Part shown: one piece after another, positions 4,186-10,300 of the stretch
Layout of the letters: every line of letters starts with the position of its first letter
Numbering within the stretch: the stretch's first letter is position 1
NCBI GenBank assembly: GCA_013375475.1
Contig: JABXKD010000107.1
Span: 1 to 10,447 of the forward strand
Origin: Promethearchaeota archaeon
GTDB lineage: Archaea; Asgardarchaeota; Lokiarchaeia; Sigyniarchaeales; SOKP01
Direction: 5' to 3'
Length of the DNA stretch: 10,447 nucleotides
Notes under the pieces: model-generated
What the model was told of the DNA's origin: nothing
The model's database searches: none
What the model saw: only the letters and a program-made list of their open reading frames with translations
Translations under genes and position numbers: made by a program

Positions 4186-4799
4186 CTTGCTACCGAGGAC
4201 TATTCTTACGCGGGATTATATTCTATACCACAGGGATTGCAGATAAAATGGTTAGTTACTTCGATTTCTGATAATGTCGAGAACTGGAGAATAAGGTAAA
4301 TGTATATCGTGGAGAAAAATATTCCGAGATGGTTGCGAATATTGAAACATTTGTATATAAACACCCTGAAGGATTGTCAAGAGGATTATATAATGGGTCA
4401 GGAAACGATTTGTACCTCTTACCAGTTAACATCCCTCATTACTTAGACTCCTTTAACTCTAGCATCCCTCTACTTGGTAGAGCGTATAGTTTTGTTACCA
4501 ACAACAGTATTAATTTTGATTATACTCTGATTGGTTCTAACGATACGGTCCAATACACATTTAACGATTACGGATTACTAAAATCTTACCAGATTTTTTA
4601 TAATCACACTTTAGCTTTCGTGCTCAAGTTAAAGAGTTTCACTTTGGGAGGTTTCGACGAAGGATTGATAATGGTTATAGTAATCAGTTCAATCTCTTCC
4701 GCTATATTAATAGCGTTTATTTTTGTTAGAAGAAGGAAGCTTCAAAAAAGAAAAGATCAGCGTAAAAAATCTTCAAGACTCTTAAGGAAAATTAGATAG
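4186..4799 (+). pseudogene. Probably frameshifted/N-terminally decayed gene for a C-terminally membrane-anchored surface protein (intact part is ORF 4329-4799)
   Basis: ORF 4329-4799 ends in a hydrophobic helix (LIMVIVISSISSAILIAFIFV) plus a very basic tail (RRRKLQKRK...) but has no signal peptide. Its frame is open from 4275 (..KVNVYRGEKYSE-M). A different frame, open 4186-4296, reads LATEDYSYAGLYSIPQGLQIKWLVTSISDNVENWRIR, which looks like its upstream continuation across a 1-nt shift. The 3' end overlaps the convergent LRR gene by 18 nt. Confidence 0.5.
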
Positions 4800-6584
4800 A
4801 TCATATTTTTTCAGTATATTCATATATTCTTCCAACCCTTCTGGAGTTAGTTTATATTCTCTGTTTTCTTGAATTACGTAATTCTTTTTCATTAAGGAAG
4901 CTAGGACTTTTGTAAGGATAGATACTTTGATTGATAGTGGTTTAGACCTTAAATCAGACCAAACTACATGGTGATTATTATATAAAATCCAGTAGATTAT
5001 ATGCTCATAGTTTTTCCCTTTTCGAATCGGAAACGGAGGCAATTTAATTTTATCAGAAGTTCCATGTAAAAATGTATGTTCTTTTGTCTCCGCTATCGCA
5101 TTGATAATCGTTTTTAATTCAATCCCTCCTTGAATTTTTCTTATATCAATGCTAGATAGGACGGAATTCCAAGATTCAATCTCAATCTCTCCTATATAAA
5201 CGCGTTTCAAGTTTTTAAGTTTGGTAATGGATTTCGGAAGTTCTTTTAAATTATTCCCTCCTAAATTAAGAATTTCTAACTGTTTCAGATTTGCAATACA
5301 ATCGGGAACATGCTGAATTCCTTGATTAACGAGTCTTAGCTCAGTTAAGTCCTTTAATAAGCATAATTTTTCTGGAAAAAGTCCGATCGGAGGCATTTCA
5401 GGGTTCTCAGATGTAATCCTATTAACATGCCCTTCATTATTTAGTGTGTATACCATCAACCTATTTTCGTACCAGCTAATATCGTAATAACTAGACTCCC
5501 TAGTGTTACGTTTACCTGTTTCCTCTTCCCAGTCGTTTTTCCATCCTTCTATAACGCAATCTGCGTTTAATACCGGTCCTCCTAGTGGAAAAACACCTCT
5601 TAAAATTTCGAGCAACGCCAATACCGGTGCCTCGTTCGATAATACCCCCTCTTCTAAGTATCTTTGCATACTCGAAGGTCGATTAGCAAATTCCCACACA
5701 TAACCCGGAACTTTTGTAAAACCTCTGTTTCCGTGGAATATAAGACGATTTATGTTATTGGAAATTTTTAAAGGTCGCGAGATATCTCGAATGATACAGT
5801 CAGATATGCTAAGAATTTTCAGTGATTCTAACTTGTTAACGCTTTCCGGAAGTGAGTCAAAGTTAAATCTCGAGATGTGAAGGACTTCTAGGTTTGATAG
5901 CGAAGAGAGCGAAGAAGGAAGAGAATCAAGTTCGAACTTAGAACCATAAAGATTTATGTTTGTGATGTGGCGGTTTTCAATTATAGTATTACTATTCTTC
6001 GGCCACGAATTCGGATGTATTTCTAAAAATTCTTGTCGGATCGCCGATAAGTTTGGAACTCTTTCCGAGAGTAATTCAAAACTTTCTTCATTTTCAAGAA
6101 TCTTCTGATTTCTTAAACACTTCCAATCTAACACGAACTTCGCTTCCATAGGATCAATGTCGTAAATTCTGCCTACTCTGCTTAGAATCGTGTTTTTTAG
6201 AGCTAGGGCGAACGAAAGATTACTTGATTCTAAATAATCGACAACCATCTTTAAGAAATACGTGTTCTTATCGTGAAGAATAGCCCATTGTATTACTTCT
6301 TCGCATCGTTCTGGAAAGTTATTCAGCAACACCAACATCGCTACCAATCGAACGAGTTTTGATTCGTCCGATATTAACGACTGCTCGAGAACCTTAAACA
6401 TTTGGTCGTCCGAAAATTTTAATTTCCCCATGACTTCAAGCGTTTGAATTCTGAGTTCAGAATTATCGCTCCCATTCAGTATCGAGGTTAATAACCTTAA
6501 CGCCTCTTCCCTCGAAGCTTTACCGCTACAGACATTCTGATAAATCTTATCTAAAGTTAGAATACCTCTCATTAATGTTAACAA
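4782..6584 (-). CDS. HEAT-repeat + leucine-rich-repeat protein with C-terminal winged helix-turn-helix domain
   Basis: N-terminal HEAT-like helices (ELRIQTLEVMGKL...LISDESKLVRLVAMLVL). Two LRR blocks (LPSSLSSLSNLEVLHIS / LPESVNKLESLKILSIS; FPEKLCLLKDLTELRL / VPDCIANLKQLEILNLGGNNLKELPKSITKLKNLKRVYI). The C-terminal ~89 aa form a wHTH ending YKLTPEG. Track start is TTG at 6584; ATG at 6572 is an alternative. Confidence 0.88.
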   Translation of the reverse strand: MLTLMRGILTLDKIYQNVCSGKASREEALRLLTSILNGSDNSELRIQTLEVMGKLKFSDDQMFKVLEQSLISDESKLVRLVAMLVLLNNFPERCEEVIQWAILHDKNTYFLKMVVDYLESSNLSFALALKNTILSRVGRIYDIDPMEAKFVLDWKCLRNQKILENEESFELLSERVPNLSAIRQEFLEIHPNSWPKNSNTIIENRHITNINLYGSKFELDSLPSSLSSLSNLEVLHISRFNFDSLPESVNKLESLKILSISDCIIRDISRPLKISNNINRLIFHGNRGFTKVPGYVWEFANRPSSMQRYLEEGVLSNEAPVLALLEILRGVFPLGGPVLNADCVIEGWKNDWEEETGKRNTRESSYYDISWYENRLMVYTLNNEGHVNRITSENPEMPPIGLFPEKLCLLKDLTELRLVNQGIQHVPDCIANLKQLEILNLGGNNLKELPKSITKLKNLKRVYIGEIEIESWNSVLSSIDIRKIQGGIELKTIINAIAETKEHTFLHGTSDKIKLPPFPIRKGKNYEHIIYWILYNNHHVVWSDLRSKPLSIKVSILTKVLASLMKKNYVIQENREYKLTPEGLEEYMNILKKYDLSNFP

Positions 6585-7302: not shown

Positions 7303-7333
7303 ATATAGAATTAATTGAGAGATACTATTTTTT

Positions 7334-10300
7334 ATGAGTCTAGATAAACCAGTTAAATATCCCCCTGGAGATGTATTGGATCCTAAATTGGGTCGGAACC
7401 CTAACTTTGAATATATTATTTTATGGATGTTAAATTATAATGAGGAATGTAGCTGGGCAGATTTTAAGAGAGAGATTGGTGAATCTACACTTTCTAAGTA
7501 TTTAAATAAACTCAAGGAAGAAAAATATATTGAACACTCTTATAATCGTTATAAAATTACCAAGATAGGTAAAACCCGATTTAACGATCTCTCTTTAGAC
7601 AAAGATGAGATTAAGAAAAAAATCGATATTCCCCCTAAGTCAATCCTTAAAAAGAGAAACTACGAGCACATCATCCACTGGGCTTTGTACAATAACGAGT
7701 CTTTGAGATGGTCTGATTTTCGATCAGAGTTATCAATAAATCAATCATCGCTATCTAAAGCTCTAAATTCTTTGAAGATAAAAAAATTTGTTATCAATGA
7801 AAACAAAGTTTACAAGATCACTCCTGAAGGAAGATCACAGTATTCTCAGATGTTAAGGGATTATGATTTAGATCATCAATCGATTTTGGAAGATGAAACT
7901 AATAGAATCGACGAGATTACCGAGAAAACGAGTGAATTTTTTGAGAGGTTTGAGATTGACGATAGTGAATTGAAATTTCGATTTTTAAATAATATTTTGA
8001 AGTTAGAGTATAGTAAAGCTGAAGATTTCGTACGCGAGGATGAATTTAATAAGATTATCTTATATCTATCAATAAATCATCCTGATCAATACCCCAACTA
8101 TATTTCTCCAGAAGAATTTTCCCTTAAGTATGATATAAAAAGAACTACGCTTGATTTCTTTGTTGATAAAATTGTTGAAGAAAATATCTATCCTATCAAA
8201 TTCTTTAATATTATTACGGAAGACGATAAAAAGTATTATTTTCAATCTAATGGAGAATTAGAGAAAATTCTTAATGCTATTGTAGAGAAGCACATAACCA
8301 AATTTACATATTTAAATAAATTTAACTCTACTTCTGAAGTTGAGGGAGAAATTGTCGATTTAGGACAGGTGCTCAACCAGATATTAAAGAGAGTTTCTGG
8401 TTTACTATTTAATGAAGCACTGAAGGATTCACTGAAGAAATTTTTACCAGAATATATTAATTACCTAGCATATAAAATCGAAACTGAAAAAAAGCTAATT
8501 CGCTCCGAAGATAAATTAGAAGCTGCTCAATGGCAGACATTTCAAAGCGTTTTTCGGGGTTATAACACAGCATTAATATTGAATGGAAATGGTAACGGAG
8601 AGCAATATTACAGTCTGCATAAGATGTTTTTTGAAGCGTTAGATGTCGCTTATTTTTCTAAAATCGATTTTGTTGGAGACAAGGAATTTGAAGAGGAATA
8701 TATTTCTAATAAAAATCTGGAAGCTTTTAGAAAAACTGTAAGGATGTTGGAACGCATTAAAGTTGTTAAAGCAAAAGAAATTCTTAATACTAACTTTAAA
8801 GCTCCCGAAAGTGTTGAAAAACTAATTTTAGATGATTTAATACTTAGTTCAGAAAAAGACTTTAAAGCTTCAATTTTAACTTCCGAAAAATTGATCTCTA
8901 AAAAACCTGAATCATATATAGGATATTTGTTTCACGCATTAACTCTTTTTGGGTTAAATGATTTTGAAACGGCTTTGAAAATCGTAGAAAAAGGTTTAGC
9001 TATATCAAAACATTATTCCTTGCTCTGCGTAAAGGCTCAAATCTTAATTAAAAAAGCTAAAGCCAAGAAAGCGTTAAAATTGATTGAAGAAGAATTGGGA
9101 AAAAATCCCAAAAATGTTTATCTAATGAGAACCAAATTCATTATCCTTCTGACTGATGAAGCGTGCTGGTCTGAGTGTGCTGAAAAACCATTAGATGTTA
9201 TAGATTCAATAATCACTTTGAGACCAGATGATCTAAGTTTTTACGTGTTAAAAGCCGCTGTTTTATGTGTTATGCAAAAATATAAAGAAGTCAAAAAACT
9301 GTTAAATAAAGAGGTTAATTTAAATATCGTAACTAAAAATCCTCGAATTTATACGACAGCTTTTTTCATTTTAGCCTATTCTTATATTGCTCGTGGAAAG
9401 TTTGAAAAAGCTTTAAGAGTAGGGGATCAAGCAATTTTCCAATACGATTCTCACCCTACTTCCTATTTTACTAAAGCATTAGCAATAGGATACAGTCTTA
9501 TTTATGATAAGGATAATAAGGAAATTACAGAAGATAACTTCCTAGAAGCGATAAATAAAGCTTTATCGTTAGATTCAATTGATTTTCACAAAGCAAAATA
9601 TTATCAACTTATGAGTGATGTATTTATAGAAACAAGAAGAATTGAAGACGCTATAGAAGCGATAGACACAGCTATAACTTTGGATCCGTCAAATTTGGGA
9701 ATTTATCAAATTAGAATGAAACTTTTAATGATGGATAATAAATCAGATGAGGCGATTGCGTTAGTTAACCAACTTTACGATGATAAATATATAGATAAGA
9801 AGGACTCTACAAAAATAAGATCATTTTTGATATTTGTAAAAGCAGATAAAACTACAGATCCTGAAGAGAGAATGAAACTAATCGAAAAGTCGTTTGAGGA
9901 AATTGAACCAATAATTGACGAAAATTCAGAGGACATTGGAATCTTAAATAATTTGACTGTTTTATATGGACATCTTGGAAGAAAAGAAGATGCAATAAGG
10001 GCTGCTGAAACAATGATAAGTTTAGATCCAAGTGACGGAAATCTGTTTGATTCTTATGGAGAAATGCTAATGTTATTTGGCGATTATGAAAAAGCGATAC
10101 AGAAATTTGAGAAAGCGCTTAAACTTGAACCTAAGGGATGGTTCGCTTTTCAAACTTACCTAAAGATGGGAACCTGTTACGAAAAACTCTTAGATCTCGA
10201 GAAGGCTGAAGAAAATTATTTGAAAGGAAAGGAACTTACTGATAGAATGCATCCTCTTAAAAAAGACATGTATTTTTACAAAGCTAGCGAAAAATTAGAT

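Follow-up and report, generated by a model that had tools for sequence, protein, structure and literature searches.

We analyzed a 10,447-nt stretch of a Promethearchaeota archaeon genome, referred to below as the window, which makes up the whole of contig C8 (genome of 3.92 Mb, 32.5% G+C, 288 contigs). Two of its genes lie head to head and encode a leucine-rich repeat (LRR) protein and a tetratricopeptide repeat (TPR) protein, both of which carry the same kind of winged helix-turn-helix (wHTH) domain, present once at the C terminus of the LRR protein and twice, as d1 and d2, at the N terminus of the TPR protein. Their open reading frames (ORFs) and domains are given below; HMM stands for a hidden Markov model built from the three copies and pLDDT for the predicted local distance difference test score of AlphaFold2.

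4782..6584, minus strand: LRR-wHTH gene, ORF of 600 aa from TTG 6584
4785..5051, minus strand: C-terminal wHTH, residues 512–600, a diverged d2-type copy (47/86 identity to TPR-protein residues 96–180, position in the d2 clade)
5055..5072, minus strand: linker, residues 505–510, between the LRR cap helix and the wHTH (pLDDT below 50)
5175..5987, minus strand: LRR region, residues 200–470 (Pfam, AlphaFold2 strands, alignment A2, Foldseek)
6027..6554, minus strand: N-terminal HEAT-like helical repeats, residues 11–186 (AlphaFold2 helices), common to ~450-aa HEAT-LRR proteins of the genus
7334..10345, plus strand: TPR gene, ORF of 1003 aa (Pfam TPR families, HTH_34 and HTH_45; 79% identical ortholog P0010)
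7334..7618, plus strand: wHTH1 (d1), residues 1–95 (HMM domain 1, Pfam HTH_45, AlphaFold2 wHTH)
7619..7876, plus strand: wHTH2 (d2), residues 96–181, probable donor lineage of the LRR-borne wHTH (BLASTP, trees, Pfam HTH_34)

The last 92 residues of the LRR protein (nt 4785–5060) align with residues 96–180 of the TPR protein, corresponding to d2, with 47 identities over 86 positions (55%, E 4e-29; BLASTP with the first 189 residues of the TPR protein as subject), and the same C-terminal piece aligns with residues 7–79, in d1, with 24 identities over 76 positions (32%, E 1e-8). An earlier note on this DNA had given these coordinates together with a manual count of about 47 identities in 85 positions, and had ranked wHTH1 as a third, more diverged copy, all in agreement with the alignments. 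When residues 1–400 of the TPR protein were searched against nt 3900–6700 by tblastn, matches were restricted to residues 96–181 and, more weakly, 7–79, and no homology was found in the flanks beyond residues 96 and 181; the two proteins therefore have exactly one domain in common. Low complexity or biased composition was dismissed as the source of the match, as the three-copy HMM finds only 15 domains, distributed over 8 of the 16,194 ORFs that the genome yields in six frames. Contigs of three studies span the LRR-wHTH gene and show no differences there, one of them bridging nt 4230–5105 and another 4970–6077, and the fusion is therefore real and no assembly artefact.

The LRR protein is composed, in order, of HEAT-like helical repeats, LRRs, a short flexible linker and the single C-terminal wHTH. 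Translation probably begins at ATG 6572, which yields 596 aa as in the database protein P0002. In the AlphaFold2 model (pLDDT 84.8, predicted TM-score (pTM) 0.70), helices are found at residues 11–186, LRRs at 200–290 and 377–470, a further helix at 490–505 and the wHTH at 518–593 (pLDDT ~90). The LRR region, made up of two LRR blocks and a helical insertion bearing the family motif GV..EAPVLALLEIL, is recognized by the Pfam families LRR_14 (60 bits, cut-off 40), LRR_8 (38.7, cut-off 27) and LRR_4 (30, cut-off 27), and HEAT_2 gives a weak Pfam match to the N-terminal part. Foldseek returned 120 matches to the LRR model at E ≤ 1e-3, those listed being generic LRR proteins. The Xanthomonas effector families of NCBIfam were rejected for this protein, since their scores fall far short of the cut-offs (66 vs 500 bits) and mirror the LRR repeats only.

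The LRR copy matches its neighbor's d2 at 51.6% identity, as compared with 37–40% for the six other d2 domains and 27–36% for the d1 domains. In a 15-row tree it falls within the d2 clade (95/91*) as the sister of the neighbor's d2 (92/83), and it keeps this position in a 63-row tree with domains from 17 other genomes of the genus (d2 clade 100/99*, sister pair 90/81); in a 192-row tree it forms a trio with the window d2 and the d2 of P0010 (SH-aLRT, the Shimodaira-Hasegawa-like approximate likelihood ratio test, 94). The true orthologs of the window TPR protein are P0010 (791 of 1003 residues identical, 79%) and the proteins encoded on the metagenome contigs L056, L057 and L059 (75–78%), these four orthologs, 75–79% identical, forming with it a five-member orthogroup. 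The ~1000-aa TPR genes of relatives were rejected as orthologs of the window gene, being orthologous instead to its paralog on contig C233 of the same genome. With the orthologs added to the tree, their d2 domains and that of the window form a clade of five (94/70), to which the LRR copy is sister (90/86).

At the nucleotide level the window d2 and the d2 of each ortholog are equally far from the LRR copy (59–61% identity, the extremes being 59.2 and 60.8%), the orthologs' d2 being 81–83% identical to the window d2. Third positions of conserved codons agree at 47–60% between the LRR copy and the close d2 domains, and the synonymous sites of the copy are saturated. Because of this equidistance from every d2 of the orthogroup and of the saturation, the transfer is judged old, not recent, and the copy has evolved fast thereafter. 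It has derived states in common with the window d2 and bears the d2 signatures, namely a short PP-to-NYEH spacing, EN-x-x-Y and the YDL end. Its nesting in the d2 clade, sister position and equidistance thus indicate that the wHTH came from the d2 of the orthogroup stem, and we regard the LRR copy as a precise copy of d2 from the stem lineage of the neighboring TPR orthogroup, a conclusion supported by the trees with moderate branch support and with the caveat of long branches. The LRR protein and its TPR neighbor bear the same lineage-specific wHTH, which is, as judged from sequence, a clear case of domain shuffling. The earlier note had proposed that one wHTH module was attached to two solenoids, LRR and TPR, and that the three copies be treed against the genome-wide paralogs; the nested position of the LRR copy, within its neighbor's lineage in the d2 clade, substantiates the proposal.

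The TPR protein consists of the tandem wHTH, a central helical domain and a TPR solenoid, the latter recognized by TPR_2 (71.2 bits, cut-off 27), TPR_1 (60.1, cut-off 27.8) and other Pfam families. HTH_45 matches residues 50–83 (26.4 bits, cut-off 25.5) and HTH_34 residues 116–173 (30.3 bits, cut-off 27), and the central domain (residues ~190–470) has no match in Pfam or NCBIfam. The AlphaFold2 model of the d1-d2 tandem (pLDDT 88.3) contains two wHTHs, each with a helix after it. All three copies are modeled as helix-helix-helix-hairpin-helix at pLDDT ~90, with the following elements assigned by DSSP: helices 25–35, 41–45 and 50–62 and strands 66–69 and 72–75 in d1; helices 110–121, 126–132 and 137–149 and strands 153–156 and 159–162 in d2; helices 526–537, 542–546 and 554–566 and strands 570–573 and 576–579 in the LRR copy. 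Each of the modeled copies thus has the three-helix bundle followed by a β-hairpin wing that defines the wHTH fold, and the LRR copy is assigned to it because of its 55% identity to d2 and of the matches of the family profile in the PDB (E 4e-4 to 1e-3).

A wide structural search with VIA-align gave a top 50 made up almost entirely of DNA-binding wHTH proteins, several of them solved with operator DNA (Z 9.5–10.6); among them are MarR, PadR, QsrR and AspA with DNA, and also BldR, HxlR, SmtB, Sso10a and AphA. The best matches of d1 are AphA/PadR (Z 9.7–10, root-mean-square deviation 1.1–1.6 Å) and those of d2 are MarR, BldR and PadR (Z ~10.5). The family profile matches an iron-dependent-repressor-related protein, the PhiH1 repressor, HxlR, MntR and, weakly, Sso10a. 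The predicted fold of the family is MarR/PadR-like, and the sequence profiles are in weak agreement with it. No Foldseek match to the two-domain model was found at E ≤ 1e-3. The predicted complex of TPR-protein residues 1–200 with the LRR wHTH (score 0.00, mark 0.32) weighs neither way.

Seven of the eight family proteins of this genome (634–1008 aa) have an N-terminal d1-d2 tandem followed by a long, mostly TPR, tail, and in the LRR protein alone the wHTH is single and C-terminal. By round 4, iteration of the HMM had drawn in wHTH proteins at large (42 ORFs), and the seed and round-2 models were kept. Among 1.84 billion representative proteins, a 24-domain profile (A1) retrieves 220 representatives at E ≤ 1e-3 and 131 at 1e-10. 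The family has a conserved (Y/I/L)PP lead-in ahead of helix 1. In a sample of the phylum, profile matches occur in 56 of the 68 genomes of the Promethearchaeota family to which the window belongs and in none of the 232 genomes of 29 other families; the wHTH family is narrow and, in the sampled genomes, restricted to one Promethearchaeota family. A common layout is an N-terminal d1-d2 tandem with a central helical domain and usually a TPR solenoid. The best 150 representatives include 54 N-terminal tandems with a long tail, 19 short N-terminal tandems, 38 stand-alone single domains, 10 N-terminal single domains with a long tail, 15 C-terminal single domains and three C-terminal tandems.

A domain so abundant that adjacency is expected by chance, with copies that are not close relatives, had been named in the earlier note as the finding that would overturn its reading. 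Only eight family genes are present in 3.9 Mb and the copies are close relatives; from these counts, a distance of 1 kb or less between the LRR gene and any of the seven other family genes has an estimated chance probability of a few in a thousand, and chance adjacency of the LRR gene and a tandem-wHTH gene is unlikely. A literature search over titles and the openings of abstracts found nothing on this wHTH family, on archaeal LRR-wHTH fusions or on archaeal RRNPP-like systems, for which only papers on bacteria came up; this is no proof of their absence. Leads from the Protein Atlas (WhiP, DUF2250, assorted wHTH clusters) scored 0.76–0.79, below the usable level. A word-based protein search with residues 440–600 of the LRR protein returned only the protein itself and two LRR proteins (20–30% cover), a result of little weight as it missed even the neighbor. 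Elsewhere in the same genome, two tandem-wHTH paralogs of 643 and 653 aa lie 4 kb apart at C144:30901–38723, so that local duplication also enlarges the family. A 429–475-aa form with the tandem wHTH and the central helical domain, devoid of TPRs, is found at L025–L029 (genomes G010, G017, G018, G020 and G021).

No full-length ortholog of the LRR-wHTH protein was found in 42 genomes of the genus, the best matches to its LRR part being devoid of a wHTH. The layout itself is wider in the family than the earlier note had supposed: 18 of the best 150 family representatives carry the wHTH C-terminally, and 16 of the 17 scanned have LRRs in front (P0144 was scanned and has none; P0153 was left out of the scan). 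Short LRR-wHTH proteins of 333–363 aa are present in G002, G053 and G054, and fusions of this type occur, own genome included, in 4 of the 42 genomes that represent the genus and in 4 of 135 that represent the family, where 16 candidates per genome were scored and weak fusions may be missed. Residues 297–600 of the window protein align end to end with short LRR-wHTH representatives (266–367 aa; P0081, P0090, P0093 and others) at 26–31% identity (alignment A2), in the same order of a GV..EA..L..LE motif, one LRR block, linker and C-terminal wHTH. The approximately unbiased (AU) test rejects monophyly of the genus's four LRR-borne wHTHs (log-likelihood 97 lower, p=4.1e-8), for a group that was named after the tree had been inspected. 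In the 192-domain tree, the LRR-borne single wHTHs need eight changes by parsimony, at least three of them forced by starred branches, and the C-terminal tandems fall separately with the d1 and d2 clades. The scattered placement of the LRR-borne wHTHs and the rejection of a single clade point, therefore, to repeated movement of the wHTH between TPR and LRR scaffolds, the window protein being either a new fusion or an older one whose wHTH was replaced by a d2 copy.

The LRR-wHTH gene belongs to a segment that is present or absent as a unit and also holds a membrane-protein gene.

4032..6701, no strand: presence/absence block of 2.67 kb, with the membrane-protein gene and the LRR-wHTH gene
4329..4799, plus strand: gene for a predicted tail-anchored membrane protein of 156 aa (transmembrane helix at residues 113–131, basic tail)

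In L057, the M14 peptidase gene (87% nucleotide identity) is followed by ~55 nt and then by the repeats and the TPR gene (81.5%), without window nt 4036–6693. In sequencing run X2, a contig joins position 4031 to 6702 at a depth of 5.8, beside the full form at a depth of 15.6, and a loose end at 4031 is seen in run X5. The ends of the 2.67-kb block carry neither direct nor inverted terminal repeats. In short, the closest orthologous locus, where the T-rich repeats described below and the TPR gene stay, does not have the LRR block, nor does a co-occurring allele, and any joint function must therefore be dispensable. The earlier note had tied the LRR gene functionally to the cassette of repeats and TPR gene, which persists in L057 without the block and does not need it; of its interpretation, the shuffling stands, and the joint function with the cassette and the close functional tie are not borne out or are weakened.

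The 156-aa membrane protein has five N-x-S/T sequons, and its gene is convergent on the LRR gene. Its only paralog in the genome (C233:45446–45898, 50% identity) likewise lies beside LRR and TPR sequences: C233:45446–50615 holds the membrane-protein paralog, an LRR fragment, T-rich DNA, a conserved 90-aa ORF on the minus strand and a 997-aa tandem-wHTH/TPR gene, the LRR fragment being 49% identical, interrupted by one in-frame TAA and devoid of a wHTH. At G051:C130, a 212-aa LRR ORF (51–58% identical) is divergent from a 1006-aa TPR gene; this locus is orthologous to C233 but has its LRR ORF in the opposite orientation. At G002:C126, a 993-aa TPR gene has an LRR-wHTH gene upstream of it, and G054:C109 carries a stand-alone wHTH, an LRR-wHTH gene and then the start of a TPR-type gene; the LRR-wHTH gene of G053 is on a 4-kb contig whose other genes encode LRRs only. 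Adjacency of an LRR gene and a tandem-wHTH gene is therefore seen at C8 and C233 of the window's genome and at G002:C126, G051:C130 and G054:C109. Among 14 TPR loci of other genomes of the genus (L013–L024, L050, L054), an LRR gene is in the range fetched at two (L013 and L050), and L015 has a stand-alone wHTH at its TPR locus. LRR genes, with or without a wHTH, recur near tandem-wHTH/TPR genes, and the link is loose. In the G054:C109 row (L051, positions 1–3800), a 100-aa stand-alone wHTH, a 333-aa LRR-wHTH protein and a tandem-wHTH gene cut short after its start by the end of the contig are on one strand; the wHTH of the LRR-wHTH protein is near identical to the stand-alone wHTH, and the row looks like a recent local wHTH duplication.

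Between the two head-to-head genes, three elements were delineated.

6588..6691, no strand: cluster of three CGCGAT upstream of the LRR gene, including the palindrome CGCGATA-N17-TATCGCG
6694..7222, plus strand: three T-rich direct repeats of ~167 nt each, 74–75% identical between copies, each ending in a TATA-like box
7226..7246, plus strand: candidate operator of the TPR promoter, with two ACTTC and one GAAGT, between two TATA-like boxes

The candidate operator includes the inverted repeat TACTTC-ACAC-GAAGTA. Three ACTTC/GAAGT copies occur at -130..-1 of the TPR gene, as compared with a control mean of 0.22 and 0.14% of controls with at least three (n=2213), for a motif that was picked after inspection. 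Promoters of the family have a TATA-like box, paralog-specific inverted or direct repeats (e.g. GAAGTTCGAACGAACTTCGAA) and a second TATA-like box. In the TPR orthologs of the C233 type (L013–L017, L020, L050, L054), a strongly conserved palindrome, GAAGTTCGAACGAACTTCGAAG, lies between the two TATA-like boxes; other paralogs bear promoter repeats of their own, such as CGATAGTTTC, found twice in C261. The region upstream of the LRR gene has none of the ACTTC/GAAGT elements of the TPR promoter. CGCGAT occurs 724 times in the genome, with only three clusters of three within 150 nt; another cluster, at C242:10156–10285, adjoins a distant C-terminal tandem-wHTH gene.

The T-rich repeats are conserved upstream of the orthologous TPR genes (81% nucleotide identity to L057 and L058), and the small ORFs within them shift in frame and length between the window, L057 and L058. 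The array of peptides that the earlier note saw at 6694–7222 is thus not preserved as reading frames; the repeats look non-coding, either promoter-like or small-RNA units, and may encode a short unconserved peptide. Rfam gave no match in the window, the T-rich repeats included.

The explanation that we find rather probable combines the shuffled d2 copy with a regulatory role for both proteins, the functional part being inferred. The LRR and TPR proteins would be one-component regulators, with the solenoid as the sensor of a protein or peptide ligand and the MarR/PadR-like wHTH as the DNA-binding part. The TPR regulators would be autoregulated, the d1-d2 tandem acting as a built-in pseudo-dimer on the inverted ACTTC/GAAGT elements in the promoter of its own gene. 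The LRR protein's single wHTH would need self-association or a partner and, with its altered recognition helix, might have a target different from that of d2 or a role other than DNA binding; the LRR module would be an accessory, strain-variable input to the locus, not its core.

Several points weigh against this explanation, beginning with the dispensability of the LRR block and the rarity of the fusions. Of 27 columns that are at least 80% conserved in 65 d2 domains, the LRR copy keeps 19 and the window d2 24; its recognition helix has changed from INQSSLSK in d2 to IKVSILTK, and its branch is 4–19 times longer than that of the window d2 (1.22 vs 0.31; 1.74 vs 0.09 with the orthologs). Given this long branch, the copy may have lost DNA binding or come under relaxed constraint, and its exact placement is unsure, the branches being long and the sister support of 90/86 unstarred. 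The LRR protein matches no Pfam wHTH family at E ≤ 0.01, and the pTM of 0.54 of the tandem model leaves the d1-d2 packing undefined. The ACTTC/GAAGT motif, chosen post hoc like the group submitted to the AU test, is absent from two of the six own-genome paralog promoters scored. Because the recognition helix is changed and only 19 of the 27 d2 columns are kept, an operator common to the LRR wHTH and d2 is doubtful; the heterodimers that the earlier note envisaged are conjectural. That the LRR and TPR genes are local and functionally tied may be plausible, but the dispensable nature of the block and the change in the recognition helix weaken this view.

As a first alternative, the LRR wHTH could be a mimic or decoy, which imitates the neighbor's d2 and titrates its contacts (d1, a partner or an effector) or baits them onto the LRR sensor. 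We judge this unlikely, although the precise derivation from the neighbor's lineage, the head-to-head genes, the long branch and the altered recognition helix beside a kept core and C-terminal helix (YDL) would suit it, as would the strain variability of the LRR module, which is typical of accessory sensing genes; neither protein has an NTPase, an executioner domain or a Walker A motif, and an altered recognition helix is equally expected with a new DNA specificity. In a more specific form, which appears quite improbable, an LRR sensor with an integrated d2 copy would intercept, titrate or report on whatever targets the regulator, be it a viral or cellular factor or its own d1. If true, this would be an archaeal analog of the plant integrated-domain receptor pairs, strain-variable like an immunity gene and located in the prokaryotic lineage closest to eukaryotes. 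In the plant nucleotide-binding LRR (NLR) pairs of the RRS1-WRKY type, an LRR protein with an integrated transcription-factor domain has a head-to-head partner gene. The resemblance resides in an LRR protein with a copy of a DNA-binding domain, a head-to-head partner and strain variability; unlike those pairs, the window has no NB-ARC/NACHT NTPase, the domain is a wHTH and not a WRKY, and the host is an archaeon. Neither window protein belongs to the STAND (signal transduction ATPases with numerous domains)/NLR class, with no NACHT or NB-ARC Pfam family at E ≤ 0.01 and no Walker A in either.

It is likewise doubtful that the fusion is a neutral by-product, i.e. an old recombination accident beside an often-duplicating family, kept in some strains only and without a regulatory role. 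An intact 600-aa ORF despite saturated synonymous sites, the confidently folded LRR wHTH of the model, the conservation of hydrophobic-core positions in the wHTH, an architecture that arose or persisted several times in the family and a sequence identical in contigs of three studies all speak against such an accident, which would otherwise agree with the presence/absence polymorphism of the block, the fast evolution of the LRR copy, the rarity of the fusions (4/42 and 4/135 genomes) and the C233 LRR paralog, broken by an in-frame TAA and devoid of a wHTH.

We give little credence to the view that these proteins are not transcription factors and that the tandem winged helices serve as protein-protein scaffolds in solenoid complexes, in the manner of cullins, PCI proteins or ESCRT-II. 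Eukaryote-like scaffolds abound in Asgard genomes, and the weak Foldseek matches of the two-domain model include the COP9 signalosome and a cullin-2 complex (E 2.5e-3 to 1e-2, TM-score 0.25); domain by domain, however, nearly every match is to a DNA-binding wHTH regulator from bacteria or archaea (Z 9.5–10.6), the sequence profiles match HTH_34, HTH_45, the iron-dependent-repressor-related protein, HxlR and weakly Sso10a, and paralog-specific inverted or direct repeats lie between the TATA boxes and start codons of the family genes. Finally, a single ancestral LRR-wHTH fusion, whose likeness to the neighbor's d2 would be an artefact of long branches or convergence, is extremely improbable in view of the AU test (log-likelihood 97 lower, p=4.1e-8), the d2-clade support of 100/99* and the d2 signatures of the copy (PP-to-NYEH spacing, EN-x-x-Y, YDL end), and the end-to-end alignment of the C-terminal half with the 266–367-aa LRR-wHTH proteins, in the same order and with the same linker position, is also compatible with an older wHTH replaced by a d2 copy, a variant of the favored explanation.

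The predicted fold is that of the MarR/PadR/HxlR regulators, with three helices, a β-hairpin wing and a following helix (Z 9.5–10.6). These regulators are small homodimers, whereas large solenoid proteins carry the present domain, either as a covalent tandem or singly; the window family also differs by its own (Y/I/L)PP lead-in, its narrowness (220 representatives) and the LRR copy, which has no Pfam wHTH match. Like the TPR protein, the RRNPP receptors of Firmicutes (Rap, Rgg, NprR, PlcR, PrgX) have an N-terminal DNA-binding module followed by a TPR solenoid, but that module is an Xre-type HTH, whereas the TPR protein carries a tandem MarR/PadR-type winged helix that is not of the Xre type; it further differs from them by the extra central domain, the archaeal host and upstream small ORFs that are not frame-conserved. 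In two-domain SarA homologs of the SarS type, two winged helices in one chain act as a pseudo-dimer. SarS has, likewise, tandem homologous wHTHs in one polypeptide but, unlike the TPR protein, no sensor solenoid; it ranks with the leading Foldseek matches to the two-domain model (1p4x; E 2.9e-3, a weak match, TM-score 0.32). As to the LRR part, the genus's HEAT-LRR proteins of ~450 aa resemble the window protein in their N-terminal helical repeats and in having two LRR blocks (28–33% identity over residues 5–331/468 to ORFs of 451–456 aa in relatives), and a match is found in most genomes of the genus; they have no wHTH, nor is a tandem-wHTH gene found within 1.5 kb of them (0 wHTH matches at 11 loci). 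The short LRR-wHTH proteins have the layout of the window protein but a different wHTH ancestry, the window copy being in the d2 clade.

To our knowledge, Asgard transcription regulators are almost unstudied, and it is unusual for a prokaryotic protein to combine LRRs with a DNA-binding domain. The present family would represent a lineage-restricted, multi-copy set of Asgard regulators with a modular wHTH output on TPR or LRR sensors and candidate operators in their own promoters. What is new is the shuffling of a lineage-specific wHTH module between TPR and LRR sensors, the wHTH fold itself being known. The locus records a dated and precisely bounded domain transfer between adjacent genes, showing how one-component regulators may be built, and natural populations display the recipient gene as a presence/absence polymorphism. 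Should the LRR protein modulate the TPR regulator, the two would form a compact two-sensor circuit, testable with recombinant proteins.

The remaining genes of the window lie to the left of the block.

25–978, minus strand: DUF2785 protein
1170–1964: LCIB/C-type beta-carbonic-anhydrase-like protein
2173–2526: small DnaJ-domain protein
2573–3931, minus strand: M14 carboxypeptidase-like protein

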